Below, in pieces: positions 16,545 to 58,091 of a stretch of DNA of 64,000 nucleotides; position 1 is the stretch's first letter, and the number at the start of each line of letters is the position of its first letter. The position numbers and the translations under genes are program-made. Origin of the DNA: Spirochaetia bacterium (lineage in GTDB: Bacteria; Spirochaetota; Spirochaetia; CADAEX01); contig JAZURI010000010.1 of assembly GCA_045606105.1 (NCBI GenBank), positions 32,001 through 96,000 on the forward strand, in the 5' to 3' direction. The notes under the pieces are model-generated. The model ran no database searches, was not told the origin of the DNA, and saw only the letters and a program-made list of their open reading frames with translations.

Positions 16545-16630
16545 TGTCCTAAATTATAACAAAATATTTTTCTGATGTATAGTAAAATTCAATCAAACAT
16601 AATATATTGAAACCATACGGAGGTTATATC

Positions 16631-17938
16631 ATGAAATTTTTCAGTACAAGAGATAAAAACAACATTGTAACTTTCAAGGAAGCGGTTTTCAGAGGACTTT
16701 CCCCTGAAGGAGGCCTTTATGTTCCCGATTCCACTCCGGACCTTTCCGCATTTTATCAGGGTCTGACTGCAGAAACCCCTTTCAACGAGGCTGCTGCCGG
16801 ACTTACATATGAAATACTCAAGGACGAGCTTACCAGGGAAGAGGCAAAAGCTATCTGTGACAGAGCCTTCACCTTCAAGCCTGATATCGTGGATACCGGC
16901 AACGGAATCTTCATCATGGAGCTTTTCAACGGACCTTCCTCAGCATTCAAGGATTACGGTGCATGCTTCCTGGCTGCATCAATGGAGGCCTTCCTCAGCA
17001 AGGAAAACAAGAAAGCCCTTATTCTTACCGCTACCTCGGGAGATACGGGAAGCGCTGTTGCACAGGCATTCTTTGACAAGAAGAACATTGATGTGGTTAT
17101 CCTCTATCCGTCAGGAAGAGTAAGCCCTCTGCAGGAAAAGCAGCTTACAACACTGGGCAAGAATGTGAGAGCCCTTGAAGTAAAGGGAAATTTCGATGAC
17201 TGCCAGCGCATGGTAAAGAAGATGTTCACAGATCCTGACATGAAGTACCTGCCTCTCACATCGGCAAACTCCATCAACCTGGGAAGACTTCTCCCTCAGT
17301 CCTTCTACTACATGTATGCATACAGCCAGCTGAAGGCAAAGTACAAGGATATTGTTTTCTGTGTACCGAGCGGAAACTTCGGAAACCTGACAGCAGGTGT
17401 CCTGGACTGGACATGGGGAATGCCTGTAAAGGAATTCATCGCAGCCACAAACCTTAACAATGAGGTTCCTGAATATCTGGAAACCGGAGAATACAAGCCG
17501 CATCCTTCATTCCAGACCTATTCAAACGCCATGGATGTAGGTGATCCGAGCAACTTTGAGAGACTCCGCCACATCTTTGACAATGATTACAGAAAGATGA
17601 ATGCAATGATCAAGGGTGAATGGGTTTCCAACGAGGATACCATTGCCACAATGAAGAAATACTATGAGGAAAGAAATCTGTTCATGGATCCTCATACAGC
17701 AGTAGGATATCTCTCATCCTGCAGATACAAGGAAAAGTTCGGTGTAGGAGATGACACAGCAATCGTTTCCCTTGCAACCGCTCATCCGGGCAAGTTCCTG
17801 GAGGTTGTTGAACAGGCAACCGGCAAGGTTCCGGCTCTTCCTGAAAATCTGGAAAGACTGCTGAAGCTTGAAAAGCACTCAACTGTAATCGATAATACAG
17901 ATGAAGCTCTTAAGGAATATCTTAAAAAGACTTTCTGA
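16631..17938 (+). CDS. thrC: threonine synthase
   Basis: GLSPEGGLYVP, ELFNGPSSAFKD, ATSGDTG, ANSINLGRL, VPSGNFGN, DPHTA, TAHPGKF. GGAGG lies upstream of ATG 16631. Confidence 0.95.
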   Translation: MKFFSTRDKNNIVTFKEAVFRGLSPEGGLYVPDSTPDLSAFYQGLTAETPFNEAAAGLTYEILKDELTREEAKAICDRAFTFKPDIVDTGNGIFIMELFNGPSSAFKDYGACFLAASMEAFLSKENKKALILTATSGDTGSAVAQAFFDKKNIDVVILYPSGRVSPLQEKQLTTLGKNVRALEVKGNFDDCQRMVKKMFTDPDMKYLPLTSANSINLGRLLPQSFYYMYAYSQLKAKYKDIVFCVPSGNFGNLTAGVLDWTWGMPVKEFIAATNLNNEVPEYLETGEYKPHPSFQTYSNAMDVGDPSNFERLRHIFDNDYRKMNAMIKGEWVSNEDTIATMKKYYEERNLFMDPHTAVGYLSSCRYKEKFGVGDDTAIVSLATAHPGKFLEVVEQATGKVPALPENLERLLKLEKHSTVIDNTDEALKEYLKKTF

Positions 17939-17947
17939 TTTTTTTAA

Positions 17948-17980
17948 AAAGGCAGCGGGGTTCAGACCCTTGTTGCCTTT
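17948..17980. terminator. putative terminator hairpin between convergent thrC and DUF4956
   Basis: AAAGGCAGCGGGGT-TCAG-ACCCTTGTTGCCTTT hairpin with A/T tracts on both sides. Confidence 0.5.
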
Positions 17981-18660
17981 ATTGTGAAACTGCTGTCCGG
18001 AAAGCTTTCCCTCAGCCGGCTGTCTATGTTCTGGACTTTGTTGATATCGGTCCAGACTGTCCTGAACTTAATCTCCACGGAATCACTTCTCCCCTTGTAC
18101 TCAAGAAAACTGACCTGTCCGCCACCTGCCTGGGTTACAGCCTTGGTAATAAAATCCTTGTCCGGAAGCCTGCTGTTTTCATCCTGGCTGAAGGTAAGGG
18201 TGATATCCAGCTCCATGTGGTTAAGGAAATATTTTTTTCCGAAGCCTGAAAAATGGACTGCCAGCATGAGAATCCCGGTAAATACCGCAATGACAGCCGC
18301 AATCAGATAGAAGCCCAGACCGTTTGCCATACCGATAACAATGGCAAGGAAAATGAAGGACATGTCGATGAAGCTGTTTACGCTGGTCCTGAACCTGATG
18401 ATAGAAACGGCACCCACGAGACCGAAGGCAACGGCAAGATTGTTTCCGATAACCATCATGGCACCTGCAAGGATAACCGAAATAAAGACCATGGACTGCA
18501 TCATTATGTAATTGTTCTGCTTGGTCTTGTTCATTACCTTGTAGATTTCTCCCAGGATCAGGTTGAAGAAGGCTGAAAGACCCAGTCCCACCAGACAGTT
18601 CCAGATTGATTCCACCCTGATGGTTGATTTATTGTCTGCAAAAGAATTGAAAATTTCCAT
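17962..18660 (-). CDS. DUF4956 family membrane protein
   Basis: MMVIGNNLAVAFGLVGAVSIIRFRT......FIFLAIVIGMA.G.G.Y, plus a C-terminal ACT-like soluble domain. Confidence 0.85.
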   Translation of the reverse strand: MEIFNSFADNKSTIRVESIWNCLVGLGLSAFFNLILGEIYKVMNKTKQNNYIMMQSMVFISVILAGAMMVIGNNLAVAFGLVGAVSIIRFRTSVNSFIDMSFIFLAIVIGMANGLGFYLIAAVIAVFTGILMLAVHFSGFGKKYFLNHMELDITLTFSQDENSRLPDKDFITKAVTQAGGGQVSFLEYKGRSDSVEIKFRTVWTDINKVQNIDSRLRESFPDSSFTIKATRV

Positions 18661-18676
18661 ATTTCTCCTTTATCCT

Positions 18677-19789
18677 TTAAGGCAGTTCAAGACTCCCCCA
18701 GGTTATGCGTCCCGAGGTACTGTCCAGATATGCTGCCGCTTCATTCTTGTTATTGACAAAATCTCCGTAATATGAACCGTATAACGGATCGTTTCTTACA
18801 GGCAGATCTGCCTCCCCATACATTTCCGCCGCTTCGTCCCTGAGAACGGAAAGGATGTTTTCAGGTCCCGGTGTCACGAAAAGCTCGTTTACCCGGCTGT
18901 TGTATGCAGCCCTGACCTCGGGTACGGATGTAAGCCGGCGTACCAGCTGATTGTCTCCCGAAAGATCGTAACCGCTTATATTGCTGTAGATACAGCTTTC
19001 ATTGTCCCAAGGCAGGAAGTAGAATTTTCCGTCAAAACAGATATAGAAATTTGTTCTGAAGGTATCCTTTACCGTAAGAAAATTATGCACTGCCAGATAG
19101 GATGCAAACTTCTCCACGTCCACATACCTGTTTACAAATTCTCTCCAGCCTTCATCCGATTTGGTTACACAGGCTGAAACAAGATGCTCCAGATTGGCAA
19201 AGTTGTCATCATCCGGGAATTTCTTTTCGGACAGGGATGCAAGGGGATTGTTTGCCCCCAGATCGTTATAATCCTCGAAATAGCACTTGAAAAGCTCTCC
19301 TGCTATCTCGTTTTCGTCATAGTAGGTGATGAAATTGTAGCATCCGATATATTCGTCGTTAAGGAAGAGGACTATGGTTTCGGTATCGCAGGCCGGAAGA
19401 CCCGCCAGCTGATAGGCCCGCATGGCAATCCTGTTATCCACACCACCGCCGGCCTGTCCCCTTTCAAGCACATATTTCTTTCCGTCTATCTTCAGCATGA
19501 AGGATTTCTTGGAATGCATTCTGGATGTATAGCCCCGGACCTTGATCTTTCCTTCTCCGGTCCAGCTCCCCTTTTCAATGCGGCATCTGGCATAGTCATC
19601 GGTAGAAACGGAACCGTAGAGAGTCTCGGTTTCCCGGTCTGTAAGATGGATCTTTACCTTGGAAACGCTCCCCACATCGGGATCGTCATTATCCGCAAGC
19701 CCCACGAACTCGCCGCAGGAAAAAATAAGAAGCGAAAGAACGGGAATTATGGCAAACTTCAGGATTTTACGCAAAAGCTTATACTCCAT
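18677..19789 (-). CDS. CotH kinase family lipoprotein (copy 1)
   Basis: Lipobox LIFS-C. KIKVRGYTSR...KKSF, LFLNDEYIGCY, VDVEKF..YL, D....NFY, FLPWDNE. Confidence 0.85.
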   Translation of the reverse strand: MEYKLLRKILKFAIIPVLSLLIFSCGEFVGLADNDDPDVGSVSKVKIHLTDRETETLYGSVSTDDYARCRIEKGSWTGEGKIKVRGYTSRMHSKKSFMLKIDGKKYVLERGQAGGGVDNRIAMRAYQLAGLPACDTETIVLFLNDEYIGCYNFITYYDENEIAGELFKCYFEDYNDLGANNPLASLSEKKFPDDDNFANLEHLVSACVTKSDEGWREFVNRYVDVEKFASYLAVHNFLTVKDTFRTNFYICFDGKFYFLPWDNESCIYSNISGYDLSGDNQLVRRLTSVPEVRAAYNSRVNELFVTPGPENILSVLRDEAAEMYGEADLPVRNDPLYGSYYGDFVNNKNEAAAYLDSTSGRITWGSLELP

Positions 19790-20784
19790 ATCGGTTCAAA
19801 ATCTGTTTCAAGTCCGCTGCCGTTGTCATAGGTATCGAACTGCACGCCCCCTTCCAGATGCATGAACACGTTGCGGCCGTGGAAATAGTTTCCAAGAAGG
19901 AGCTCCACACGGCGGCTGTCATCTATCCTGTCGATGTCCGGCATAAGGATACCGGCCCTGAAGGCAGGGGTGTATACAAAACGGGATGTACTGAAGTTAT
20001 AGCCCACGGATGCATCGGCCGCTGCGAAGAAGCTTTCCTCCTTGCCCGGAAAATGAAGCAGTCCCACGGGATCCACCAGATTGGTTCCGGCAGAGGCTTC
20101 GGCTGTAACAACCCAGCTTGTGGTATACATGAAATATTTCATATCAAAGAGGAAGTTGTTGTACTGATATTCGTCTCCGATTCCCAGAGCTGCCTGATGA
20201 ACTGCATAAGGAAGATAGGATGCCGTGAAGGCCAGGAAATGGCGGTCCGGCTCGAAGTTGTACATTCCTGTAAGGATAAACTGGGTTTCGTTGTGGGATG
20301 AATTGAAAAAGAAGGTGGCATCCAGTGTCAGATTATCTGTAAGAAAATTGTCATGCACATAGCGGATACCGGTGTCGTTTGAGGACCAGCCCAGCTTCTT
20401 CATGTATTCTACACCCGGGGAATCCATTTCGAAAACCTCGTATCTTTTCTTAACAAAGTCGTTCAGGTAAAGGTCTCTCTGGAAAATTCCCCCCTTTATC
20501 CAGCTCAGCTCGTCAAAGGCATAGACAACCGAAACCTCGTCCGGCTCCACATCCTTCCTGTCAATTTCCATGGAGAGAATGGTGGAAAGACGGTCGCTGA
20601 TCATATATTCGGCGGTAAAGGTCCCTTCCAGCTCGTATTCCAGATAATACTTGTCTCCGGTTACGTCGGAATCATCCAGCTTGAATTCCACTTCAGCATC
20701 AAACTTTATCCTGTCCTCCTTGGCTGCAAAGAGCGAAACGGAACAGAGTATCAAAACAGTAAATAAAATCAGTATCTTTTTCAT
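19759..20784 (-). CDS. putative outer-membrane beta-barrel, porin-like (copy 1)
   Basis: Signal peptide and alternating aromatic/hydrophobic beta-strands. Paralogous to 21880-22893. Confidence 0.6.
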   Translation of the reverse strand: MKKILILFTVLILCSVSLFAAKEDRIKFDAEVEFKLDDSDVTGDKYYLEYELEGTFTAEYMISDRLSTILSMEIDRKDVEPDEVSVVYAFDELSWIKGGIFQRDLYLNDFVKKRYEVFEMDSPGVEYMKKLGWSSNDTGIRYVHDNFLTDNLTLDATFFFNSSHNETQFILTGMYNFEPDRHFLAFTASYLPYAVHQAALGIGDEYQYNNFLFDMKYFMYTTSWVVTAEASAGTNLVDPVGLLHFPGKEESFFAAADASVGYNFSTSRFVYTPAFRAGILMPDIDRIDDSRRVELLLGNYFHGRNVFMHLEGGVQFDTYDNGSGLETDFEPIWSISFCVKS

Positions 20785-21896
20785 AACAGTCCTTTAACTA
20801 TATCTCCCCTGTTGCTGATAAAATATTTTATGTAATTTTTCATATTTGTAAAATCCTTTTCGGTATAACGGTAGCTTGGATCGTTCTTTACGGCAAGAAA
20901 AGCCTCGTCATACCATTTGTCCACCTGTGCCTTCAGCTCATTGAGAAAAGCTGTGTCATCGGCCAGATCTGTCATGGCCTGTTTGTAGGCGGTCCGTACC
21001 GAAGGAACAGTAAGTATACGGCGCTGGATTTTTCCGTCTCCGTAGATACGGCCTGAATTCAGCTCCATTCCCAGCTCGTTGTCCCAGGGGAGGAAAACCA
21101 TCTTTCCGTAATTGTACAGGTAGTAGTTCCAGTTTGCGGTATCGCCCACAGCAAAGAAATCGTGGACCACCATGTATCTGATGAAATTATCCACATCGAT
21201 ATGGGATTCCACCCACTCATTCCATTGGGCATCAGACATGTAGTTTGTGTTTACGATAAGGGTTTCCAGAGAAGAAAAATCGTCGTTATCGGGAAATTTC
21301 CTTTCGGAATTGGAACGGAGAGGATTTTCTTCAAAGCTCAGAAGCTCCACCTTGAACAGCTCCGACATGAAACCGCTTTTCCATGCCTCCAGCTGCTCCT
21401 GGCTGTACATGTCCACCTTGGCGTAGTAGCCGATGTACTTGTCATTGATATAAAGTGCCACTGCCTCTGTTTCAGGAGCAGGTGTAAGAGCCTCCCCCTT
21501 GTACATGAAGTTGTTGTAGGCATACATGACAATACGATTCTTCAGCCAGGTGAAATCCTCGTGCATAAGGGCATAATTTCCCTCGTGCATTCCCTCCTTT
21601 ATCCTCAGGGTAAAGTTCTTTTTCGGGTAACGGCGGGAGGTATTGCCTCTGACTCTCATGGTTCCCTCCACGTTCACGCCGTTGTTTACCGTAATGCGGC
21701 ACGGAGTGTGATCCTCCTCCGGAGGCGAAACGCTGTCGTAGAACCGTTCCATGTTCTCTTCCGAAAAATATACCTTTATCTTCTTTACATTTCCCACATC
21801 GGGATCGGTAAAATCGTCAAATCCGATGAATTCGCCGCAGGAAAAAAGAGAAAAAGATAGAATCAGAACTGTTAAAATCTTAATTCTTGATAACAA
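20781..21896 (-). CDS. CotH kinase family lipoprotein (copy 2)
   Basis: Lipobox SLFS-C. MRVRGNTSR..PKKNF, LYINDKYIGYY, IDVDNF.RY, D....NYYLY, FLPWDNE. Confidence 0.87.
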   Translation of the reverse strand: MLSRIKILTVLILSFSLFSCGEFIGFDDFTDPDVGNVKKIKVYFSEENMERFYDSVSPPEEDHTPCRITVNNGVNVEGTMRVRGNTSRRYPKKNFTLRIKEGMHEGNYALMHEDFTWLKNRIVMYAYNNFMYKGEALTPAPETEAVALYINDKYIGYYAKVDMYSQEQLEAWKSGFMSELFKVELLSFEENPLRSNSERKFPDNDDFSSLETLIVNTNYMSDAQWNEWVESHIDVDNFIRYMVVHDFFAVGDTANWNYYLYNYGKMVFLPWDNELGMELNSGRIYGDGKIQRRILTVPSVRTAYKQAMTDLADDTAFLNELKAQVDKWYDEAFLAVKNDPSYRYTEKDFTNMKNYIKYFISNRGDIVKGLL

Positions 21897-22893
21897 CTGA
21901 CACCGCCCATCTCAGTTCGAGCTTTGTTTTAAGATCATCATCCCCGAAGCCGTCATGCTTGGTAATGATTCCCAGGCCTCCGTCCAGATGGAGCTTGACA
22001 TTCTCCTTATAGGTGAACTGGTTTCCGAACAGTACTTCGAATTCGTTGCAGTCTGCCTCGGAGATCTCGGGAATAAAGGCAGTTCCTCTGAGCATCGGAA
22101 GCCAGCGTACGAAATCTGTAAGCTGTACATTGATACCGCCGTGGATATCGGCTCCGCCGAAGAAAGGATGCTCTGTATCTGCATCAAAGTTTATGTGCCC
22201 CATAGGATTGACCAGCCCGGAGCCCAATGTAAGCTCGGCACCGTAAATATATTTTCCACGGTAATCGGCATAGACCAGGTTGCCGTAGAAATTATCCCGG
22301 GGATAGTCCTTCTCGGATGCATCCCATTTCTTGTGATTCAGGAACGGATAATAGGAAACAAAGATTCCGGCCACCATTTCCTTATCGGGATCCTGACGGT
22401 AGAATCCGCCGCAGAGCTGAGGCTCCAGCTGGGAAGGAATGTAGAGCACATGGGCAAAACCGCCCCAGTTGTCTCCGCTTTCATCCCTGTATTCGTACTT
22501 GCCTCCGATGGCGCGGGAAATATAACCCTGATCCTTCAGTTCCCGGGTAATGATATTCTTTCTGGCAAAAGGACGGTCAAAGGAACCGATATAGTCGTCA
22601 AGAGTCAGGATATTCTCGAATTTACCCGCCTTTACGGAATGGTTTTCAAGAAAGGTATATTTTGCGGAAATCTCATCCACGTCCACCTCGTACTTGTCCA
22701 GCACAGGCTTGAACACCAGCTCTATATCATCGGTGGCATCAAACTTGAAACGGAGCTTTCCCTGAAGGTCGTAAAAATCGTCCTTATCCATTTCATCGTT
22801 GGACTCAATGCTGAACTCAGGCTTGATGGAAAACTGCGAGAATGCAGCAATCGGCACGGCAAACAAAACAAGAAACAAAACCAATTTTTTCAT
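21880..22893 (-). CDS. putative outer-membrane beta-barrel, porin O/P-like (copy 2)
   Basis: Signal peptide and beta-strand pattern. DEISAKY.F...HSVKAGKF.....LDD..GSFDRPF resembles the N-terminal strands of phosphate-selective porins. Confidence 0.6.
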   Translation of the reverse strand: MKKLVLFLVLFAVPIAAFSQFSIKPEFSIESNDEMDKDDFYDLQGKLRFKFDATDDIELVFKPVLDKYEVDVDEISAKYTFLENHSVKAGKFENILTLDDYIGSFDRPFARKNIITRELKDQGYISRAIGGKYEYRDESGDNWGGFAHVLYIPSQLEPQLCGGFYRQDPDKEMVAGIFVSYYPFLNHKKWDASEKDYPRDNFYGNLVYADYRGKYIYGAELTLGSGLVNPMGHINFDADTEHPFFGGADIHGGINVQLTDFVRWLPMLRGTAFIPEISEADCNEFEVLFGNQFTYKENVKLHLDGGLGIITKHDGFGDDDLKTKLELRWAVSVVIKN

Positions 22894-23990
22894 CTTTTCA
22901 ATATCTCCAAATATACTGATATAACTTTCTTTTCGTCAAATTTTTCTTCTGCAAGCATACGGCTCCTTCTGCCCATTTCCAACCTTTCTTCCCGGCTGAG
23001 AAGAATGAATTTCTTAAGCACACGATACAGGTCATCGGCAGATCTCGCCTCGGTTACATAGCCGTTTTCGCCGTCTGTAACTGTTTCCCTGCAGCCCGGC
23101 ATGTCGGTGGTGATTACCGGCCTTCCCATGGCAAGAGCCTCTATGAGAATCTTGGGAATTCCTTCCCTGTAGTAGGATGGAAGCACCACCGCACTGCAGG
23201 AGGCGATATAGGGTCTGACATCCTTGGTCTGGCCGCCGTAGTATGCCCCTTTATCAGGATCCAAGGCCTCCAACTCTGAAAGCCTGACTCCCATGGGATT
23301 GTCATTGTCCGCAGGGCCCAGAAGTACAAATTCCGAATCGGGAAACTCCTTTTTCAGCCTCCCTGCGGCCTCGATAAACTCGTTTATTCCCTTGTTTTTC
23401 AGCATTCGGGAAATGAGCATGAACTTCCTGGTATCGGGAACCGGCGAAAAATCAAACTTTTTAAGGTCAGCACCTGACCCGTTAACAAGATATACATTCC
23501 TTTCGCCGATTATTTTTTCATCGATAAAGAACTGACGGTCATCCGGGTTCTGGAAAATCACGGCAAAAGCCTTTCTGAAGGCCCACTTATAGAGCTGCTT
23601 CACTATGCGGTATGTCATGCCGGACGGATTGTCAAAGGCAGTTCCCAGTCCGTTTACGGTACAGGCTATCCTGATTCCGGCAAGCCGGCAGGCAATGGCA
23701 CTGTAGATATTGGTCTTTATGGTATAGGTAAAAACCATATCCGGCTTTATTTTCTTGTAGATTTTATAGTATTCAAGTATCAGGAAAAGATCTGAAAAAG
23801 GATTCTTTCCCTTTCTTTCCAGGTTCCTTACCTCGTGGAAAACAGTTCCCGGATTCTTTATGGAGGTGAAATTGGCGGCAGGTGCCACGGTGTGGACCTC
23901 ATATCCAAGCCCCTTCAGGGTTTCGATAAGACCGGCCCTGTGGTTGAAAACCGTCCATGCAGTATTTGAAGAAATGACCACCTTTTTCAT
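22890..23990 (-). CDS. glycosyltransferase family 4 (PglA/CapM-like)
   Basis: NT.W...NHR, YTIK.NIY, FQNPDD, NGSG.DL, SRML..KG..EF, LPSYYREG.P..L.EA.AMGRP.ITTD.PGC. Confidence 0.9.
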   Translation of the reverse strand: MKKVVISSNTAWTVFNHRAGLIETLKGLGYEVHTVAPAANFTSIKNPGTVFHEVRNLERKGKNPFSDLFLILEYYKIYKKIKPDMVFTYTIKTNIYSAIACRLAGIRIACTVNGLGTAFDNPSGMTYRIVKQLYKWAFRKAFAVIFQNPDDRQFFIDEKIIGERNVYLVNGSGADLKKFDFSPVPDTRKFMLISRMLKNKGINEFIEAAGRLKKEFPDSEFVLLGPADNDNPMGVRLSELEALDPDKGAYYGGQTKDVRPYIASCSAVVLPSYYREGIPKILIEALAMGRPVITTDMPGCRETVTDGENGYVTEARSADDLYRVLKKFILLSREERLEMGRRSRMLAEEKFDEKKVISVYLEILKR

Positions 23991-23991
23991 A

Positions 23992-25113
23992 TTATTTCAG
24001 AAGCTCCCTGTAAATATCCAGCGTTTCGGAAGCTCCTTTTTTCCAGGAGAATTCGCTTTCGCGCCTGTATCCCTTTTCTCTAAGTTCTTCCCTGAGTTCC
24101 CTGCTTTCTGCAATTTTCTTCATGGCCTCCGTAATTTCCCCGGTTTCAAGGGGATTTACCAGCAGGGCTGCATTTCCGGCAACTTCGGATGTGGAAGAAA
24201 AGTCTGAAGTTATGACAGGAGCGCCGCATTTCATGGCCTCCAGGATAGGAAGCCCGAAGCCTTCGTAGAGGGACGGAAGACAGTATGCCATGGCTCCGGA
24301 ATAAAGCGTATATTTGTCATCGTCGGAAACATAGCCGGTAAAGATAATGTCCCTGCGGTCAGTTCCGGCAGAAACAAAGCTCTTGTGAAGCTTGCCGGCC
24401 ACCACCAGACGGAGCTCTGCCAGGGAAGGATTCTCCTCCTTCAGCTTAATGAAGGCATCGATTGTCCTGCCGATATTCTTGTGAGGTCTCAGCTCTCCCA
24501 GATAAAGGAAATAAGGCTTGTCCAGAGAGAAATTTCTGTAGATTTCCTCATTTTTTTCCATTTTAACCGTTGCAGCCTCGTAAACCACCCTTGCTTTTTC
24601 CGTTTTTTTCCTCAGGGAAGGAAAAACTTTTATAAGGTCATTTTTTGTGGATTCTGATACGGAAATGATGCTGTCGCACCTTTTTACCGCATTTTTCATC
24701 AGATTCCTGAGATAAAGGGATTTGAGTCCCCCCTTGTTGCCGAAAAATTCGGGATGGAGAATATATTTCAGGTCATGGATTGTGACCATCTGTTTTCCTC
24801 TGAAAAAAAGAGGATGATTTGAATAGAGACAATGAAAAAGATCGCACCTGAGCTCTGCTCCGTGCTTCAGGAAAAGAAGATCTCTTTTAAGACCGATGGC
24901 AGGAATATCAAAAACCTTGACTTCAGTATTGTTCATCCCTGCAAGCATGACAATGAATGGGTGATCCTTCTTTAGCGACGGATTTACCATAACTGTAAAA
25001 CGGTAATCTTCAGGTGCAGCCGGAAGAAGCTCCCTGAGCAGTTCCTCCACGTACTGACCTACTCCGGTCCGGCCGTTTTCCACAGCCAGGGCATCAAGAA
25101 TTATATGCTTCAT
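23992..25113 (-). CDS. glycosyltransferase family 4 (MtfB/WbaZ-like)
   Basis: TGVGQY, VTIHDL, SVSESTK.D, PHKN, PSLYEGFGLPILEAM.CG.PV. Confidence 0.9.
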   Translation of the reverse strand: MKHIILDALAVENGRTGVGQYVEELLRELLPAAPEDYRFTVMVNPSLKKDHPFIVMLAGMNNTEVKVFDIPAIGLKRDLLFLKHGAELRCDLFHCLYSNHPLFFRGKQMVTIHDLKYILHPEFFGNKGGLKSLYLRNLMKNAVKRCDSIISVSESTKNDLIKVFPSLRKKTEKARVVYEAATVKMEKNEEIYRNFSLDKPYFLYLGELRPHKNIGRTIDAFIKLKEENPSLAELRLVVAGKLHKSFVSAGTDRRDIIFTGYVSDDDKYTLYSGAMAYCLPSLYEGFGLPILEAMKCGAPVITSDFSSTSEVAGNAALLVNPLETGEITEAMKKIAESRELREELREKGYRRESEFSWKKGASETLDIYRELLK

Positions 25114-25114
25114 T

Positions 25115-25933
25115 CTAAAATCTCCTGAATTGTCTGAAAAAGAATTTTATACGGCGCATGTTCTTGACTCCGTTGGCAAAAGACTTGAAGAAACGGCTTT
25201 TTCTTTTAAGTCCCCGGTAAAATTCGATAACTGCAGAAACAGGACTTCTGTCACCGCCTGTGCTGCCGAACCAGTTTTCCCTGTTCAGTTCGAACCGGCC
25301 TGAAATAGTTTCCTGAAACTCCTTGTTCTGAGGAATGCATACCGGTTTTATACCGTAGAGACGTACATCTATACCAAGCCTGTTGCCTGTAAGCCAGTCT
25401 GCCGGCATACGGATGGGAAAACCTGCGGCAAGAAGCTTTTTCGCACCGCTGAGTTTAATAAGGTAACCGCTGGTCCAGTTGGGATTTTCCACAAAGCGGA
25501 CAATATGATATTTTCCGAAAAGCCTCTGCCTATCCCAGACAGAAGAAACCGCATTGTTATGGGAAAGGAACATAAGTTCCCAGTCCTCAGGAAACTCCGG
25601 CTCTCGACTTAGGATTTCCGGCAGTTCATCACAGAGAATCACATCATCCTCCAGAATCAGCGCCTCTTCGATATTATCCTCAACCATTTTCCTGTAGATA
25701 TTGAGATGGCTCCAGGAACAGCCTATTTCTCCCCTTGTCAGCTCCCGGCCGAAAAATGATACGGAGCCCTCGGAGTCATATCCGGCATCAACTTCTGCCT
25801 GAGACAGCTTACGCCCGTCCACTGCCGGAAATATTTCAAAAGGGATTCCTAACTTATCAAGCTGTGCCGATATAAATTCCCGTCTGTCGGCAGAGCTTTC
25901 AAGATTGACTACAAAAACCGGGGGAAATTTCAT
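25115..25933 (-). CDS. glycosyltransferase family 25 (LgtB/Lex2B-like)
   Basis: FVVNL..S.DRR, F.AVDG, LT.GEIGC..SH, ALILEDD, T.GY.I...GA.KL, P.D. Confidence 0.9.
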   Translation of the reverse strand: MKFPPVFVVNLESSADRREFISAQLDKLGIPFEIFPAVDGRKLSQAEVDAGYDSEGSVSFFGRELTRGEIGCSWSHLNIYRKMVEDNIEEALILEDDVILCDELPEILSREPEFPEDWELMFLSHNNAVSSVWDRQRLFGKYHIVRFVENPNWTSGYLIKLSGAKKLLAAGFPIRMPADWLTGNRLGIDVRLYGIKPVCIPQNKEFQETISGRFELNRENWFGSTGGDRSPVSAVIEFYRGLKRKSRFFKSFANGVKNMRRIKFFFRQFRRF

Positions 25934-26655
25934 TTCTTATCCTCCGAAAAAATTGGTGCCGGAGAAAAGTCCTCTATGAGAAATTCCCTTTTGTCGCGGC
26001 TCCACTGCTTATAGCCGTGGGTAAAGACATTCTCTCCGTAAAAGGTCTTAAGAACATCCCTGTTATGAGGCACCGGAACTGTACGATGATAGAAGCGGCA
26101 TTCCGCAAGGGGATAGATATCTTTCTTAGGATAGACTCTGCGAAGTCCCTTGGTTACGAAAACGATATTGTCATTCTCCTCGTTGCCCCAGATTATATCC
26201 ACATGGAGAGAGTTCTTTCTGCTGAACTGAAGCTGCAGGCACTCCTCCCTTTCTTCAAGGTAATAATGGGTTCCGGAAAGAGCCTTTTCCAGAAGATCCT
26301 TCACCTTTTCCTTGTCCCTGCGAAGCACTCCGATATCTCCGTCGGTTTCCCACGGATTGAAGCCGCCGTGCCTTACAGCCCCCAGATGAGTTCCTATGAT
26401 GGCAAACCATTCCACCGAATTTGCATCCAGGAGATCTCCCAGAAAGGTAAGCAGCTCATAGAGATGATTTATACAGCATACGGGAGAATTCTTACCCTTT
26501 CTTTCGTAATAGAAGTTGATGCTCCACGGATTTTCGTCGCACCTGGCAGTAACGGAGGTGCATACCTTGTCACGCCTGAAAAAGAGAAGGTACCGCAGAA
26601 AAAGACGGCATAAAAGAAGAGTTCCTTTCTGTATTCTCCTGATGAATTTCCTCAA
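25930..26655 (-). CDS. LicD family phosphotransferase
   Basis: GTHLGAVRHGGFNPWETDGDIG, HVDI, IYPL....F.......P.....L..FYG. Confidence 0.85.
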   Translation of the reverse strand: MRKFIRRIQKGTLLLCRLFLRYLLFFRRDKVCTSVTARCDENPWSINFYYERKGKNSPVCCINHLYELLTFLGDLLDANSVEWFAIIGTHLGAVRHGGFNPWETDGDIGVLRRDKEKVKDLLEKALSGTHYYLEEREECLQLQFSRKNSLHVDIIWGNEENDNIVFVTKGLRRVYPKKDIYPLAECRFYHRTVPVPHNRDVLKTFYGENVFTHGYKQWSRDKREFLIEDFSPAPIFSEDKK

Positions 26656-26657
26656 AA

Positions 26658-28115
26658 TTAATCCTTTTTTCCCTTTTTTCTGACTATATTAATCAGATAC
26701 TGAAGACATTCCAGCCTTAAGATCCATGCCATAGCAAAATATACGACAATACCGGCAAAGGCCTGAACCATCATCAAAGGCAGATATCCAAGTCCTGGAA
26801 TCCTTATACTCATTATAATAAGCCCCATCAAAGCCGACAAGCCTATAAACGGAATAACATCCGCAAGCTGCTCCCTGAGGCTGTATCCGATAAGCTTTCT
26901 GTTGGGAAGGGCTCCGATAAGGATTGAAATCAATGTGGTGAAGGCATCAAAAATAACCACCGCTTCCAGGCTTCTGAAAACAAAGGCTGCAACACAGAAA
27001 CCGGCAATCATTATGATTTTCTTGGCAACCTCGATACGTAGAAGGATTTTTCCCTCCCCCATGGCCTTGAGAACCTGAAGATTGGTACTCTGCAGAGGCC
27101 AGAAGGCAAACTTTATACAGGCCCACTGAAGGAAGAAAACACAAGGAAGCCATTTTTCGGTAAGAAGAACAATAACCAGCGGTCTGGCAACCACGGCAAG
27201 CCCCGCCATTGCGGGAATCACCAGGAAAGAGCTGGTAACAATGGCCCGCCGCACCATTTTCTTCAGCTTGGCTTCATCCTCCTGGAACGAAGCAAGGGCC
27301 GGAAACATGACCGACTGTATGGGACCGTCAAGATTGGAAACTATGAACTGAGGGAAGGTAATACCCTTGTTGTAGATTCCCAGGGCGGCGGATGAAAAGC
27401 TTTTTCCGATTATGAGGCTGCAGAAGTCGTTATAGACATAATGAAGCATAGATGCCAGGAAGGTTCTTCCCCCGAAGGAGAACAGAGATTTCAGCCTGGT
27501 AAGGGAAAAAAGCAGTTTAGGCTTCCATTTTATCAGATACCACATGATAAGGTTCTGACAGGTATAGCTGGTTATTTTCTGACCTACCAGAGCCCAGACA
27601 CCGAAGCCGGCATAGGCCATCCAGATTCCCACAAAGGCGGAAACAATAACCCCGGATATGACTATCTTGAAGGATTTCTTGAAAGCCATGTTCCTGGAAA
27701 GGATGGCATGCTGTATGGAATTCAGGGTTCCAAGGAAAATTACCGCCGAAAGGACCCTGAGAACAGGCTTTATTTCGGGAAGCTTGTAGAAACCGGCAAT
27801 GAAAGGAGCTGCAAACCACAGTATGATATAGGTTACGGCAGAGAATGCGATACTGAAGAAGAATACCGAGGAAAAGTCCATGTCATCCGCGTTCTTCTTC
27901 TGTACCAGTGCAACCGAAAAGCCGTTTTCAATGAATATAACGGCAATATCGATGAACACCATCACCAGAACTACGATACCGTAGTCCCTCGGAGCCAGAA
28001 GACGGGCCAGAATAATGGAAATGACAAAGGTTATCCCTTTCTTTCCTATCCTTTCAAAGGCCTTCCAGAAAAGAGAACTTATTATGGTTTTTCTTGTTAC
28101 CGGGTTGCTGCTCAT
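26658..28115 (-). CDS. wzx: polysaccharide flippase Wzx (WzxC-like)
   Basis: LARLL.P.DYG, G...ALVQKK, W.PKL.FS..RLK.LF.FG, IIGK.FS...LG.Y, LLTEKW.P; many TM segments. Confidence 0.88.
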   Translation of the reverse strand: MSSNPVTRKTIISSLFWKAFERIGKKGITFVISIILARLLAPRDYGIVVLVMVFIDIAVIFIENGFSVALVQKKNADDMDFSSVFFFSIAFSAVTYIILWFAAPFIAGFYKLPEIKPVLRVLSAVIFLGTLNSIQHAILSRNMAFKKSFKIVISGVIVSAFVGIWMAYAGFGVWALVGQKITSYTCQNLIMWYLIKWKPKLLFSLTRLKSLFSFGGRTFLASMLHYVYNDFCSLIIGKSFSSAALGIYNKGITFPQFIVSNLDGPIQSVMFPALASFQEDEAKLKKMVRRAIVTSSFLVIPAMAGLAVVARPLVIVLLTEKWLPCVFFLQWACIKFAFWPLQSTNLQVLKAMGEGKILLRIEVAKKIIMIAGFCVAAFVFRSLEAVVIFDAFTTLISILIGALPNRKLIGYSLREQLADVIPFIGLSALMGLIIMSIRIPGLGYLPLMMVQAFAGIVVYFAMAWILRLECLQYLINIVRKKGKKD

Positions 28116-28117
28116 TG

Positions 28118-28822
28118 TCAGAACTTACGGAACCTTCCGTCTGTCTTGTTGGTTTCGGCTATATTGCCGGCCATGGTATCCTCCCAGAACACGCAGGGAA
28201 CATTCCAGGTCTTTCCGTACAGGGCTTCAAGAAAAGCCGGTGCGTTTACAGGGACAGGCACATCAAGCCCCTGAAACGGAATCCTTTCCAGACCGTTATC
28301 CTTCCATGAGAGTTTAATTGCATTGAGTGTGTCGGATTCATCCCGCAGATAGGACCAACACCAAAGATTTCCTCTGCTTCTTGTAAAGACAAAAAGATCG
28401 AAATGGATAACGCCGTTGGAATACTTTTCCACAAAGCCTTCGTTAGGCATATAGTTTCCGTTCATGCTGTAGCGGTATTCTCTGACAAAGCCGATTTTCT
28501 CAAAACTCTTGAACAGGTTTTCATCATATTGGTCTGAAAAAACGCCCATCTCCAGGTCGTCGTCATGCTTTATGAAATCTTTTTCCCGGATTGCCCCCAG
28601 CAGGGTACCGAAACAGATGAAATAGTCAATTCCCAGATTATCAAAAGCATTGAGTACCTCCGGAAAATATTTCCTGACATTGGACTGGAAAACCACCGAT
28701 TTTGCCAGTTGCTTTTTCTCCCCTCTCTTTCTCCTGAGGGTTTTCAGGATGCCTCCCGTAATGGGATTGCTTTTCAGCAGCCGTTTGGCCGCACGGTAAA
28801 TTTTATTATCGTAAATACTCAA
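28118..28822 (-). CDS. LicD family nucleotidyltransferase-fold protein
   Basis: FGTLLGAIREKDFIKHDDDLE, HFDLF, P.N...FL..LYG..W..P. Confidence 0.82.
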   Translation of the reverse strand: MSIYDNKIYRAAKRLLKSNPITGGILKTLRRKRGEKKQLAKSVVFQSNVRKYFPEVLNAFDNLGIDYFICFGTLLGAIREKDFIKHDDDLEMGVFSDQYDENLFKSFEKIGFVREYRYSMNGNYMPNEGFVEKYSNGVIHFDLFVFTRSRGNLWCWSYLRDESDTLNAIKLSWKDNGLERIPFQGLDVPVPVNAPAFLEALYGKTWNVPCVFWEDTMAGNIAETNKTDGRFRKF

Positions 28823-30060
28823 AACAGATTCCTCAATTCCTTCAGCTCCTTCCCGAGTACGGAAGAAATTCTCTGAAGCTGATACCTGATATCACCCAGC
28901 TTCCGGCTTATTTTCATGGAAGCAGTCTTGTTGAAACCGCTGCCGTCAGTATATTTTATTCTTCTTCCAGAATTGTTGTATTTTTCTCCGAAAGGCTTGT
29001 CCACCTTGAAAATCAGTTCGTTTCCCACAGACCTTTCCTTCAGATTGATTATATCCCAGCCATAGCGGTTTTCCTTGTAGAAACAGCATTTTTCTTCAAG
29101 TATGCTCCGGAAGCTGTCGGCCGGATGGGCCTGATCTCCGTTGTTTTTTCCGTCTAAATGCTCGATGTAATAGTAATCGTCGGTTTTTACAGCCCAGAGG
29201 TTATAAGTACTGTAAAGGAACTGATCCACCCCTTTATAATGATAAATATCCTCCATGGCCACGATACGCCCGGTTTTCAGATCTTCAAGAGAGATACCGT
29301 CAGCTTCGGCCTTTTCGCCCAGCCATTCCGCTACGGTCGGAAAGATATCCATAAGGGAAACTGTCTTTTTTATCTCGTTTATTCCCTTGTCGCCCGCTCT
29401 GTGAACGAACAGGGTTATATTTGTACGGGTTTTTCCGATATACTCACTGTTTTTATCGTTTTCCAGAAGACAGCCATGGTCTGAGAACAGAATTATACGG
29501 TCAAATCTATTACCAACTGACCTGATAAATTTATCTATGGCAGAGGCAAGATGCTCCTGACCTACCTTATCGGCAATTTCACGGCTCACCACCGGACCGC
29601 AGGAATAATGATCCACCGCATCATGATAATCATCATATCCCAGCCAGACACACAGGTTTTTGCTGCTGTCTTTTTCTACAGCCTCTGTTATTTCATCGTA
29701 ATCAAAGAAAGCCTCGCCGCAGGAATCAAAATCCCGGGGAACGATTCCCTCTCTCGGGCTGAAAGAATATGGAGAAGCATAGTAGAGAGTCCTGAAATCA
29801 TGTCTTTTAAGAAGCCTGAACAGGTTATCGCATCCGATGTCCAGAAAATAATAGGGCCATTGTCCCCTTTTACGGCATCCGTTTCTTTTAGGATAAAGAC
29901 CGGTGTACATGCAGGCCAGAGCTCTCGGAGTTTCTGCCGCCGGGGTATACGCCTCACGGAACCAGGTGCCTCCCATTTTTTCCATCAATTCAAGCACGGG
30001 ACTGCCGGAAACAAGCTTATCCGGTCTCAGCATGTCACAGAAAAGAAAAAGTATCTTCAA
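28819..30060 (-). CDS. alkaline-phosphatase/sulfatase superfamily protein (paralog B)
   Basis: ILFLFCDMLRPD, YTPAAETPR....YTGLYP.RNG, DYH, FSDHG, SLMDIFPTV, DG.SL. Confidence 0.8.
   Translation of the reverse strand: MKILFLFCDMLRPDKLVSGSPVLELMEKMGGTWFREAYTPAAETPRALACMYTGLYPKRNGCRKRGQWPYYFLDIGCDNLFRLLKRHDFRTLYYASPYSFSPREGIVPRDFDSCGEAFFDYDEITEAVEKDSSKNLCVWLGYDDYHDAVDHYSCGPVVSREIADKVGQEHLASAIDKFIRSVGNRFDRIILFSDHGCLLENDKNSEYIGKTRTNITLFVHRAGDKGINEIKKTVSLMDIFPTVAEWLGEKAEADGISLEDLKTGRIVAMEDIYHYKGVDQFLYSTYNLWAVKTDDYYYIEHLDGKNNGDQAHPADSFRSILEEKCCFYKENRYGWDIINLKERSVGNELIFKVDKPFGEKYNNSGRRIKYTDGSGFNKTASMKISRKLGDIRYQLQRISSVLGKELKELRNLF
30013..30059. repeat. 47-nt direct repeat, copy 1 (5' end of paralog B)
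   Basis: 44/47 identical to 31305-31351 by manual alignment. Confidence 0.85.
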
Positions 30061-30062
30061 TT

Positions 30063-31352
30063 TTACTCCATCATGGCCTGAATAAGCCTTTTAAGCTTTT
30101 TCTTATTGGCAAGAATCTTGAACATCCTGAAAATCTGCAGAGAACGGATAAGAAATTTTGTCTTGAATATATCTGATTTGCTGTACAGTCTCCGCTCCTG
30201 ACCATCCGTAAACCTGATTGCCTTCCCTTTTTCGTTGAAAAGATGGGAAATGGGTGCCGGAAAGGGCTGAATTGTATTTTCATACTGTTTTACAACCTTC
30301 ATTCCGTATTTGTAGTCGCAGGAGTGTTCTTCGATTTTACTGCGGAAAAATGCCAGCTTTTCCTTATCGCCGAAGCTGCTGATTACTTTTCCGGTTCTGT
30401 TGTCTGTCAGTTTATAATGTCGGTCCAGAACAGGATCGTCAAAATCTATCTGCTGAGTAAAGTAATAATCCTTATCCACATAACACCAGACTGTATTTCT
30501 GAAGCCCACCTCGTTTGAGACAAAATAGTTGTTCTCAATTACCAGATAAGAGAAATCATCTGCCAATGTAAGACTCTTTCCGTCAAAATTTTCGCCAGAG
30601 GGATCCTTACCCAGAAGTTCCATTATTGTAGGATAAATATCCATTATTGAGACAATGCTGTCATTCTTAGCCAGTTTTTTATCCCCCTTCCTATGCCAGA
30701 AAAGGGTAATTCCGGTTCTGTCATAGTCCAGTACATCCAAACCTCTCCGAGACTCGTTGTAAAATTTGCAGCCATGATCAGAAAAAATAAAAATATGATC
30801 CCAATAGTCGGGGGAAATTATATCAAAAATCTGACTGAAAGTATTTGACAGATGCAACTGCCCGATCCTGTCTCCGATTGCAGCAGTAGGAGAAAGCCCG
30901 ATGGAGCCGTGATAATCCTCGATTGTCATGAAAGCAATGCTGTTTTCTTCTCTGTCCTTTCTGACCTGCTTCATCATTTCCAAAGGGTCATAAGAAAGAT
31001 AGGAATAATCAAACACATGCTCCGGAAACTGTTTCCTGGAATTGACAGGAGTGGCAAAGATATAGATTCTGTGCTGCTGTTCCCTGAAAAATCTGAAGAT
31101 ATGGTTTTCAGTCTCCAGATAGACCCTCGGATAATGCTCAATTTCCCGGCAGCCGTTTCTGTTCGGGTAAAGACCGGAATAAAAAGCTCCCATACTTCTG
31201 GATGTATCCGGTGCAGGAGAATAAGCTCTGGTATAGACTGTTCCTCCCAGCCTCTCAAGCCAGCCGTCTATCTCCCCTTTTTCCTTTTTCGGATTGACAC
31301 TGTTAAGCTGATCAGGTCTCAGCATGTCGCAGAAAAGAAAAAGTATCTTCAT
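30063..31352 (-). CDS. alkaline-phosphatase/sulfatase superfamily protein (paralog A)
   Basis: ILFLFCDMLRPD, YSPAPDTSR....YSGLYP.RNG, DYH, FSDHG, SIMDIYPTI, DGKSL. Confidence 0.8.
   Translation of the reverse strand: MKILFLFCDMLRPDQLNSVNPKKEKGEIDGWLERLGGTVYTRAYSPAPDTSRSMGAFYSGLYPNRNGCREIEHYPRVYLETENHIFRFFREQQHRIYIFATPVNSRKQFPEHVFDYSYLSYDPLEMMKQVRKDREENSIAFMTIEDYHGSIGLSPTAAIGDRIGQLHLSNTFSQIFDIISPDYWDHIFIFSDHGCKFYNESRRGLDVLDYDRTGITLFWHRKGDKKLAKNDSIVSIMDIYPTIMELLGKDPSGENFDGKSLTLADDFSYLVIENNYFVSNEVGFRNTVWCYVDKDYYFTQQIDFDDPVLDRHYKLTDNRTGKVISSFGDKEKLAFFRSKIEEHSCDYKYGMKVVKQYENTIQPFPAPISHLFNEKGKAIRFTDGQERRLYSKSDIFKTKFLIRSLQIFRMFKILANKKKLKRLIQAMME
31305..31351. repeat. 47-nt direct repeat, copy 2 (5' end of paralog A)
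   Basis: 44/47 identical to 30013-30059. Confidence 0.85.
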
Positions 31353-32302
31353 GAATTATATCCTTTAAACCATTCAATGAATTTATTCAGCCCCACCTTC
31401 AGGTCTGTTGAGGGAGCATACCCGTAATCCCGCTCCAGGGCAGAAATATCGGCAAAGGTTTCCAGAACATCACCGCTCTGCATAGGCATGAGGTTAAGCT
31501 CCGCCTTCCTCCCCAGTCCCTCTTCTATAAAACTGATCATATCGGAAAGCTTTTCAGGTTTACCGCGGCCGATATTATAGATACGGCACTTTTCAAAGGA
31601 ACCGAAATCGGAAAAAAGGATTCTTTCAACACCCTCAGTAACATCATCCACATAGGTGAAATCCCTTTTCATTTCTCCGAAATTATATACATCGATAGGT
31701 TTTCCTTCGGTTATTTTCTTTGCAAACTTGAAATAGGCCATATCAGGTCTTCCCAGAGGTCCGTAAACCGTAAAGAAACGGAGCCCCACCAGGTTCATCC
31801 CGTACATGTCGGCATAAACATGAGCCATAAGCTCATCAGCCTTTTTTGTGGCGGCATAGAGGCTGGCCGGAGAATCGGTCTTTTCAGTTTCTGTAAAAGG
31901 CATCTCCCGGTTGCGGCCGTAAACACTGGAGCTGCTGGCATAGACAATGTTTTTTGTCCCAGCCCGGCGGCAGCCCTCAAGAAGATTAAGAAATGCAGAA
32001 ATGTTGTTTTCTACATAGGTATACGGATTTTCTATGGAGTATCTGACGCCGGCCTGGGCTGCCAGGTTACATACCACATCAAAATTCTTTTCCTCCAGAA
32101 AAGAGAAAAGCTCTTCCCTGCAGCACATATCCAGCTTGCGGAAATCAAGTCCTTCAAGCTTTTCAAGACGGCTGTTCTTCAGCTCCACATCGTAGTAGGA
32201 GTTCATGGAATCAATGCCTGTGATTTCGGCATCGGTTTTCATAAGTCTCCGGCAGAGATGGTATCCTATGAATCCGGCTGCTCCGGTAACAAGTATTTTC
32301 AT
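31349..32302 (-). CDS. UDP-glucuronate 4-epimerase (NAD-dependent epimerase)
   Basis: GAAGFIG, LAAQAGVRYSIENP, YASSSSVYG, P.SLYAATKK, RFFTVYGP.GRPDMA, RDFTYVDD, MQ.GDV..T.AD. Confidence 0.9.
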   Translation of the reverse strand: MKILVTGAAGFIGYHLCRRLMKTDAEITGIDSMNSYYDVELKNSRLEKLEGLDFRKLDMCCREELFSFLEEKNFDVVCNLAAQAGVRYSIENPYTYVENNISAFLNLLEGCRRAGTKNIVYASSSSVYGRNREMPFTETEKTDSPASLYAATKKADELMAHVYADMYGMNLVGLRFFTVYGPLGRPDMAYFKFAKKITEGKPIDVYNFGEMKRDFTYVDDVTEGVERILFSDFGSFEKCRIYNIGRGKPEKLSDMISFIEEGLGRKAELNLMPMQSGDVLETFADISALERDYGYAPSTDLKVGLNKFIEWFKGYNS

Positions 32303-32304
32303 TT

Positions 32305-32748
32305 TCAGTGCTCCACCACGTCTCCGTTTACGATCTTGATGACCTGTGTGGTGGATATTCCCTGTGTACGAGGCACTACCACTACACGGCCCTGCTTATA
32401 AAGGTGACCGAACCAGTATTTTACATATTCCATATCGTCTGCAGCAATGAATATGGCATCAAGCCTGTATTTTTCCATGAAGTCGTTTACTGCAGCCTCT
32501 TCCAGGGCATGAGGTCCCCAGCTGCGGTCAACTATAACGGCATCATCCACATAACGGCAGGACTTTACAATTTCCAGCCTTTCGTTTTCGGAAAAAATCG
32601 GTTTCCGTTTTTCCTGAATGGTAAGCTCATCGGAATCGATTGTTGCCACCACCTCACTGAACATTTCCTTTGCCCTTTTCAGAAGACGGACATGTCCCAC
32701 ATGAAAAAGATCGAATACTCCGTTTACCGCACATCTGTTGTATTTCAT
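32305..32748 (-). CDS. TagD-like cytidylyltransferase
   Basis: GVFDLFHVGH, SD......KR.PI....ER, CRYVD, RTQGISTT. Start MKYNR at 32748. Confidence 0.85.
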   Translation of the reverse strand: MKYNRCAVNGVFDLFHVGHVRLLKRAKEMFSEVVATIDSDELTIQEKRKPIFSENERLEIVKSCRYVDDAVIVDRSWGPHALEEAAVNDFMEKYRLDAIFIAADDMEYVKYWFGHLYKQGRVVVVPRTQGISTTQVIKIVNGDVVEH

Positions 32749-32749
32749 A

Positions 32750-34054: not shown

Positions 34055-34061
34055 TTTTCCT

Positions 34062-38364: not shown

Positions 38365-38370
38365 AATTTT

Positions 38371-39141: not shown

Positions 39142-39145
39142 GGCA

Positions 39146-40435: not shown

Positions 40436-40436
40436 A

Positions 40437-47310: not shown

Positions 47311-47312
47311 AA

Positions 47313-49405: not shown

Positions 49406-49411
49406 TTTTCT

Positions 49412-51979: not shown

Positions 51980-51991
51980 AGATTGATCCCT

Positions 51992-53440: not shown

Positions 53441-53445
53441 GAAAT

Positions 53446-55241: not shown

Positions 55242-55247
55242 GTTACC

Positions 55248-55796: not shown

Positions 55797-55812
55797 TTAT
55801 TATCCTTTCCGG

Positions 55813-58088: not shown

Positions 58089-58091
58089 TTT

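Follow-up and report, generated by a model that had tools for sequence, protein, structure and literature searches.

A glycan gene cluster in a Spirochaetia genome ends in five genes for two predicted outer-membrane barrels, two CotH-type kinases and a DUF4956 protein. They lie in a 64,000-nucleotide (nt) stretch of contig JAZURI010000010.1 (hereafter the window, to which coordinates without a locus label refer) from genome G000, which is 1.46 Mb long and 99% complete. BamA is present in 19 of the 20 genomes of this family, including G000, which is therefore a diderm. All five open reading frames (ORFs) are on the minus strand and form the tail of an 18-gene glycan run extending from 36399 to 17962, in which all 17 junctions fall within −56 to +16 nt. 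Barrel A (21880-22893) overlaps the preceding family 4 glycosyltransferase (GT4) gene by 4 nt and is followed by CotH-2 (20781-21896), barrel B (19759-20784), CotH-1 (18677-19789) and DUF4956 (17962-18660), with junctions of −17, −4, −31 and +16 nt. The initial annotation of this DNA had described the same five packed genes continuing from GT4 with a 4-nt overlap.

The five module genes are real and under selection, with nonsynonymous rates (dN) below synonymous rates (dS) for each gene against two relatives. Their named homologs come from Spirochaetia, and NCBIfam has no name for any of the five. In one metatranscriptome run, a 3,568-base contig spans 19097-22664; DNA carry-over is possible and, these being contigs, no single transcript is shown. 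Runs X2-X4 cover small shares only. We also considered a separate promoter before barrel A. A weak, minus-strand sigma70-like site (22910-22939; 10/12 matches) lies 17 nt upstream of the gene, inside the 3′ end of GT4. It may be a chance match, as the scan returned 38 sites with 26.1 expected. We rejected this candidate, a single 10/12 site for which inspection by eye showed no counterpart before the barrel A genes of more distant relatives.

CotH kinases, acidic porins and a membrane protein

By computation from their sequences, both CotH proteins are exported lipoproteins whose kinase active sites are intact. CotH-2 (371 amino acids [aa], TTG start) and CotH-1 (370 aa) share 38.5% identity, and both match Pfam CotH (PF08757) above the 23.8-bit cut-off (E 7.4e-32, 111.6 bits and E 9.4e-19, 68.5 bits, respectively). 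The lipoboxes are SLFS-C20 in CotH-2 and LIFS-C25 in CotH-1, and the motifs VRG, KK[SN]F, D-x4-N and PWD occur in both, in agreement with the lipoboxes and kinase motifs already noted in the initial annotation. Key residues are R83, G84, K92, K93, D252, N257 and D272 in CotH-2 and D242, N247 and D262 in CotH-1. Eight positions (R83, G84, R88, D252, N257, P270, W271 and D272) are invariant across 47 of 47 aligned relatives.

Bacillus CotH offers the closest comparison. The family profile matches 5jd9 with E 8.1e-23 over nearly the whole chain, placing the catalytic Asp, the Asn and the PWD Asp on their counterparts by profile alignment. D-x4-N and PWD are thus common to the module proteins and Bacillus CotH (5jd9/5jda). 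B. subtilis CotH is reported to phosphorylate CotB and CotG with ATP and to need D228 and D251 for activity (PMC7821199). Two Asp residues of 5jd9 are likewise spaced 23 apart, and we infer that D228 and D251 correspond to D252 and D272 of CotH-2. Unlike the Bacillus protein, module CotH is a lipoprotein with a CGEF-type N-terminus that is predicted to dock on a porin. Five Ser/Thr-rich exported proteins were weak candidates for substrates like CotB and CotG, none of them convincing.

Barrel A (337 aa) has a signal peptide and is predicted to form a 16-stranded outer-membrane barrel. Its AlphaFold (AF2) model has a predicted local distance difference test score (pLDDT) of 90.8, 16 strands and a long L3 loop. 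Compared with 48,161 representative chains (VIA), its best match is OprP (2o4v; Z 25.8, root-mean-square deviation 4.0, 309 residues aligned), with the next at Z 22.3. Foldseek returned porins of the general 16-strand kind, among them OprO (rank 6) and OprP (rank 8). Barrel B (341 aa) is a paralog (28% identity; hhalign probability 100, E 2.8e-65; blastp E 8e-37), so we assign it the same signal peptide and 16-strand fold.

To place the barrels in a family, we used a 79-row alignment drawn from 1.84 billion representatives, which yielded no motif usable for locus scanning. Its profile matches OprP best among PDB sequences (E 0.0013), and the Atlas assigns the barrel to Porin_O_P clusters (0.97). 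Neither window barrel matches Pfam Porin_O_P (PF07396) alone; the family is hit by 20 of the 79 aligned relatives, at best with E 8.6e-10. Of the three Pfam families named in the initial annotation, CotH and DUF4956 are thus found above cut-off and Porin_O_P only through relatives of the barrels. Together, the barrel A model and the relationships of both sequences support outer-membrane porins of the OprP/OprO family, the channels that the initial annotation had proposed.

Barrel A shares 16 strands and the long L3 with OprP and OprO (2o4v, 4rjw), yet it differs from OprP in being shorter (about 320 mature residues versus 411), strongly acidic and predicted to carry a lipoprotein lid, which OprP lacks. 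The phosphate site and ladder of OprP are described as including D94, Y62, S124, S125, K121, K126, R34 and R133 (PMC5877670). In a weak sequence alignment, barrel A retains the equivalents of D94, S125 and R133 alone among seven placeable site residues (R34 is not placeable) and has lost those of R59, R60, Y62, K121, S124 and K126. In 42 of 51 subfamily rows, an Asp or Glu occupies the position of K121. On this alignment, neither the basic ladder nor the central phosphate site of OprP was found in barrel A, and phosphate selectivity of the pore is doubtful. The module proteins are members of the CotH and DUF4956 families, and the barrels belong with OprP by fold and depart from it at the phosphate site.

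The window barrels carry net charges of −20 and −28. Subfamily means are also acidic, at −18.6 (47 full-length rows) versus −2.6 for distant relatives (28 rows). We considered acidity as a mark of the loss of VTC, the polyphosphate polymerase, and rejected it: the VTC-linked barrel of locus L119 is likewise acidic (−31), so acidity does not track VTC loss. Two barrels of locus L144 carry −12 and −23, and another barrel-like protein in the window −42.

The fifth protein (232 aa; conserved core GLVGAVSIIRFRT) matches Pfam DUF4956 (PF16316) with E 9.8e-14 and 51.9 bits against a cut-off of 30.6, and MgtC with E 0.0033. Hydropathy gives four membrane segments, the RFRT core is conserved, and the Atlas assignment is 0.95. 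We describe it as a putative MgtC-like inner-membrane protein with a cytoplasmic C-terminal domain.

A predicted kinase lid on the porin

We modeled barrel A (residues 20-337) with CotH-2 (20-371). The complex scored 0.82, compared with 0.00 for the best control. Of 157 solved complexes, 116 attain the mark that it passes, as do 2 of 215 mismatched pairs; these counts are approximate here since custom alignments were used. At least 66% of contacts agree between runs, and partner pLDDT is at least 88. CotH-2 itself reaches 88-90 in the complex; a single-sequence AlphaFold model of it (pLDDT 39.8) was discarded. Because PDB sequence searches returned free CotH and free OprP/OprO only, recall of a similar known complex is not evident.

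The model places the kinase on the outside of the cell. We took the mature barrel N-terminus as periplasmic, following standard porin topology, which yields long outer loops and inner turns of 3-7 residues. Of 51 barrel residues in contact with CotH, 36 are then in extracellular loops, 15 in the outer halves of strands and none on the periplasmic side. CotH is therefore predicted to form a lid on the outer surface, with barrel A as its seat. Residues 20-33, immediately following the lipidated Cys, touch barrel residues 322-326, so that the lipidated N-terminus lies along the last strand in the model, and the R88-K93 loop also contacts the barrel. Three interface residues, P230 (94%), G232 (80%) and T323 (81%), are kept in the subfamily and not in distant barrels.

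From this model, CotH is predicted to be a surface-exposed kinase lid capping the extracellular mouth of the pore. The pairing of barrels with CotH lipoproteins, first suggested by gene order, is supported by this prediction for barrel A and CotH-2. The trans-envelope layout put forward with it is supported insofar as lipoprotein kinases are predicted to sit on porins, with the refinement that the kinase is predicted on the outer surface and not in the periplasm. In SusCD and RagAB, encoded by tandem gene pairs, a surface lipoprotein closes a 22-strand TonB-dependent transporter from the outside. The predicted complex resembles these systems in geometry alone: its barrel is a small 16-strand porin, not a plugged TonB-dependent transporter, and its lid has a predicted enzyme fold.

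Relatives, glycan neighbors and polyphosphate enzymes

CotH, DUF4956 and the barrel share one distribution in the family, being found together in 11 of its 20 genomes. Across 401 genomes sampled from the class, the barrel profile matches 23. We left out of the barrel-bearing set one genome, G083, whose barrel is of a distant VTC type (E 5.5e-23), leaving 22. Outside the family, DUF4956 is present in 12 of 12 barrel-bearing genomes. The barrel gene mostly lies directly before a CotH gene, often overlapping it, and the pair would be the unit of duplication. CotH lipoproteins of the module have a single domain and a length of about 365-395 aa, and their mature form mostly starts with CGEF; those beside VTC in other spirochetes are longer and carry LTD or Fn3 domains. 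Broken barrel-CotH copies with internal stops occur in G014 and G240 (L035:8054-10088, L114:9283-10550), each with an intact copy elsewhere. In G001, an extra, longer CotH (731 aa; L033:8405-10600) sits at the far end of the glycan region, adjoining an S-adenosylmethionine synthetase gene.

Within the genus, barrels number two per genome and CotH copies two to four. CotH-1 expands to several tandem copies in relatives, and one metagenomic locus has a run of about four. Since these diverging copies outnumber barrels, CotH might be a surface adhesin or porin plug whose kinase chemistry is incidental. Fungal CotH proteins have an adhesin role, and a link between them and virulence is reported (PMC9973265). 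We regard such a non-catalytic role as highly improbable, given that the catalytic residues are invariant even in the tandem copies and that linkage to DUF4956 is strict. We continue to treat CotH as a putative surface kinase.

Several other genes accompany the module in relatives. A secreted protein of the SdiA-regulated type lies in or beside it in five second-family genomes (L105:8562-9278, L106:8569-9318, L107:10560-11291, L116:11926-12687, L117:10596-11372), in varying positions, and is probably an extra component. In one genus, a right-handed beta-helix protein is encoded directly upstream of barrel A (L028:6507-7559, L030:12338-13393); in the VTC-type set of L119, a Cthe_2159 carbohydrate-binding protein occupies a similar place. 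An inverted barrel B is separated from its CotH by a SIS-domain gene in two genera (L028:11191-11748, L029:9358-9927, L030:8182-8739); by eye this gene resembles GmhA, and both genera also have GT9 genes near the module.

Related modules are enriched beside glycan loci, as the counts support. Glycosyltransferase, flippase or sugar-nucleotide genes lie no more than four genes from a copy in 19 of the 22 genomes (18 without the looser locus L111), with some neighbors in the genus assigned by eye from homology to scanned proteins. The background for such adjacency in G000 is 54 of 1322 ORFs, or 4%, which is possibly low as it rests on 14 seed queries. The association with polysaccharide loci that the initial annotation asked for is thus seen, across about four independent placements.

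In the window, the module follows two GT4 genes (22890-23990 and 23992-25113, minus strand; Pfam). The same pair stands upstream in relatives, and GT4 genes are the most constant glycan neighbors within the genus, whereas the other content differs. If a glycan is the target, a conserved core would thus be likelier than a variable repeat. The rest of the contiguous run (25115-36399, minus strand) encodes, by Pfam, a GT25, two LicD proteins, a Wzx flippase, two sulfatase-fold proteins, an epimerase, a cytidylyltransferase, a UDP-sugar dehydrogenase and a priming sugar transferase; an unannotated polytopic membrane protein in it is Wzy-like by eye only. On the other side, a convergent plus-strand threonine synthase gene (16607-17938; Pfam Thr_synth_N) lies outside the module and is a fixed chromosomal landmark across the family.

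The initial annotation had named CotH and VTC as the usual companions of DUF4956. The first holds in this family and the second does not: VTC is found in 0 of its 20 genomes. Elsewhere, the six genomes that have DUF4956 among 21 from other families are also the six that have VTC. Pfam searches of the 99%-complete G000 genome found no VTC, CYTH, PPK1 or PPK2, and a hidden VTC or CYTH gene was rejected after we added two custom profiles with --max over 17,660 six-frame segments (best E 1.1). Among the 11 module-bearing family genomes, one of them only 74% complete, PPK1 is found in none and PPK2 in three, and eight lack VTC, PPK1 and PPK2 together. Outside the family, VTC occurs in 7 of the 12 barrel-bearing genomes; apart from G083, it lies away from the module, mostly with its own DUF4956. 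At 33 subfamily loci, several of which end at contig edges, VTC is nearby once.

With no VTC, PPK1 or PPK2 in G000, home-made polyphosphate is an unlikely donor, and the earlier suggestion that the module handles polyphosphate is not supported as far as polymer made by cells of this lineage is concerned. Polyphosphate could still be donor or cargo if it came from an unrecognized polymerase or the environment. The metagenomic locus L144, the one with VTC nearby, has VTC and DUF4956 adjoining, L132 has ppx and ppk1 after the module, PPK1 is present in 9 of 9 second-family genomes, and DUF4956 keeps company with VTC in all six of those other spirochete genomes. Set against the searches just described, which came up empty for VTC in the whole family and for PPK1 in every module-bearing member, this source seems very unlikely to us. 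The proposal developed below accordingly uses a small donor.

A tree of 26 DUF4956 rows, with long branches flagged and no clade test, places 17 VTC-free copies and two long-branched VTC-linked rows on one side of the starred branch. Two truncated VTC-free copies (152 and 175 aa), which keep the membrane core and lack the C-terminal domain, are nested among VTC-linked ones. Two different DUF4956 clades thus adjoin barrel-CotH pairs without VTC, and the pair has therefore joined DUF4956 without VTC at least twice. The simplest history would be descent from a VTC-containing set followed by loss of VTC.

Judged by gene content, G000 has a minimal phosphate economy. It encodes a membrane pyrophosphatase, Pit and one phosphofructokinase; no family I pyrophosphatase, Pst or Na/Pi cotransporter was found, and family II pyrophosphatases were not searched. 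The pyrophosphatase and phosphofructokinase content is no more than suggestive of pyrophosphate (PPi) as a donor. A search for ATP/ADP translocases (TLC) matched 0 control genomes.

The lid-on-pore geometry of the model also invites a SusCD-like reading, in which CotH captures or breaks down external phosphorylated compounds for import through the barrel and DUF4956. Some neighbors are phosphate-related, namely an alkaline phosphatase (L118), a 2H phosphodiesterase (L032), the SdiA-regulated propellers of five loci and ppx-ppk1 (L132). We find phosphate scavenging unlikely. The pore is acidic and has lost the basic site of OprP, and the link to glycan genes would go unexplained. Because Pit is present in G000, and Pit, Pst and Na/Pi in two module-bearing relatives, the module does not replace missing importers. 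The distribution of the module likewise does not complement that of Pit, Pst or Na/Pi, and a role as substitute importer was rejected.

A proposed surface kinase and its donor

The nearest described system is the set of cotH, polyphosphate polymerase and DUF4956 genes reported to adjoin Gram-positive pel loci (10.1101/768473). Aggregation of Streptococcus intermedius in artificial sputum is reported to fall by more than 50% on deletion of SIR_1594 (CotH) or of SIR_1592, a protein with four transmembrane segments and an ACT domain that resembles MgtC (PMC12345266). Pel is lower in the SIR_1594 deletion and higher in the SIR_1592 deletion; for the SIR_1593 (VTC) mutant, aggregation and Pel are described and no decrease is mentioned (PMC12345266). 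The same study did not find the trio beyond pel loci (PMC12345266), whereas we retrieved VTC-DUF4956-CotH sets at loci with no pel gene among the neighbors scanned.

The module and the pel set both end a polysaccharide operon with an exported CotH and DUF4956 in a non-sporulating host, and in the pel set of S. intermedius, deletions of these two genes are reported to affect a polysaccharide phenotype. The module differs in having no VTC, a diderm host with dedicated porins, CotH proteins without FN3, duplicated barrel-CotH pairs and a glycan locus of the flippase and glycosyltransferase type in place of Pel. With no contiguous pelDEAFG and no Pel family among 46 window proteins scanned, the locus is not, by its gene content, a member of the pel accessory set. 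Our literature search, whose coverage excluded most subscription journals, found no account of CotH in complex with a porin, nor of a set that lacks VTC. What is new here is a VTC-free variant of a known, functionally unexplained gene set, together with the lid model.

We propose that the module is a surface kinase acting on the glycan or surface proteins of its own cell, using a small donor (ATP or PPi) delivered through DUF4956 and the pore, and we put the probability of this at about 0.5. CotH would cap the extracellular mouth of the pore as a lipid-anchored lid and phosphorylate a surface target, most likely the conserved part of the glycan built by the neighboring GT4 genes, or else a surface protein. 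Such phosphorylation would tune aggregation, adhesion or charge. As VTC is missing from the lineage, the donor would not be VTC-made polyphosphate; a small cytoplasmic donor would instead exit through DUF4956 and reach the active site via the pore, which is the least-supported step. A bolder and distinctly more tentative form holds that a dedicated ecto-kinase seated on its own porin and fed ATP or PPi through DUF4956 phosphorylates surface glycan after export, with DUF4956, porin and CotH as the true core and VTC as an optional add-on.

Several observations weigh against this proposal. Both substrate and donor are hypothetical. We know of no ATP-exporting activity for DUF4956 or MgtC proteins, and acidic barrels with only three of the seven placeable OprP site residues would fit an anion channel poorly. 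The complex score is a model's confidence in one of the two pairs, barrel A with CotH-2. Conservation of the interface, which we considered as independent support, shows no overall excess (0.43 versus 0.425 for other outer loops). The glycan link is looser by locus, at 19 of 31, and reduces to about four independent placements: beside threonine synthase in the family, at a second-family site, at L118 and at L032. The second-family site adjoins a large gene that we take to be ileS. The adjacent glycan type also varies, from Wzx and LicD here to heptose/GT9, GtrA/GT2 and Glf elsewhere. Finally, a simple donor pipeline does not predict the opposite Pel shifts reported for the CotH and DUF4956 deletions.

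Those opposite shifts (PMC12345266) would suit regulatory coupling, in which the CotH lid acts at the surface and DUF4956, bearing an ACT-type sensor domain, is not a donor channel; it would be an MgtC-like inner-membrane regulator that governs glycan synthesis or phosphate and energy status. DUF4956 resembles MgtC in Pfam, and MgtC is described as inhibiting ATP synthase and acting on PhoR (10.1101/2024.04.20.589940). Several barrel-CotH copies also lack an adjoining DUF4956. This coupling nevertheless leaves the donor of a surface kinase unexplained, and the two truncated DUF4956 proteins linked to pairs keep the membrane core and dispense with the C-terminal domain. We judge it rather unlikely and retain the surface kinase fed through DUF4956 as our working proposal.

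Many non-sporulating bacteria export CotH-type kinases, whose phosphoryl donor outside the cytoplasm is usually guessed, from gene neighbors, to be VTC polyphosphate. This lineage amounts to a natural deletion experiment: purifying selection has maintained CotH, porin and DUF4956, with duplications, in genomes that have no VTC and, for the most part, no polyphosphate kinase either. The Streptococcus knockouts point the same way, since consequences are reported for loss of the CotH or DUF4956 gene and not for loss of the VTC gene. The value of the variant lies in setting VTC apart from the core and in a structure that can be put to the test. The predicted kinase-on-porin lid is concrete, consisting of two small single-domain proteins with named residues; if true, it would be a new mode of modifying the bacterial surface after export.

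Other genes in the window also concern the envelope. At 36461-41882, the minus strand encodes two FtsX-type permeases, a LolA-like protein and an unannotated acidic exported protein that is barrel-like by eye (37165-38364), which overlaps a convergent plus-strand ABC ATPase gene (36461-37168) by 4 nt. FtsX or LolA-like genes also occur near the module in L104, L109 and L118 and could provide an export route for surface lipoproteins. A second glycan cluster (42745-60037) contains rml genes, a second Wzx, an IspD-like protein, LicD, a radical SAM/B12 protein and an ABC exporter whose ATPase is doubled (55813-57312), and GC content falls to 37-40% over 52001-58000. At 43973-46564, an 863-aa protein fuses a YidC/Oxa1 insertase domain to a sulfatase-fold domain, and a CDP-glycerol phosphotransferase-like gene comes next; L111 has a comparable pair beside the module.

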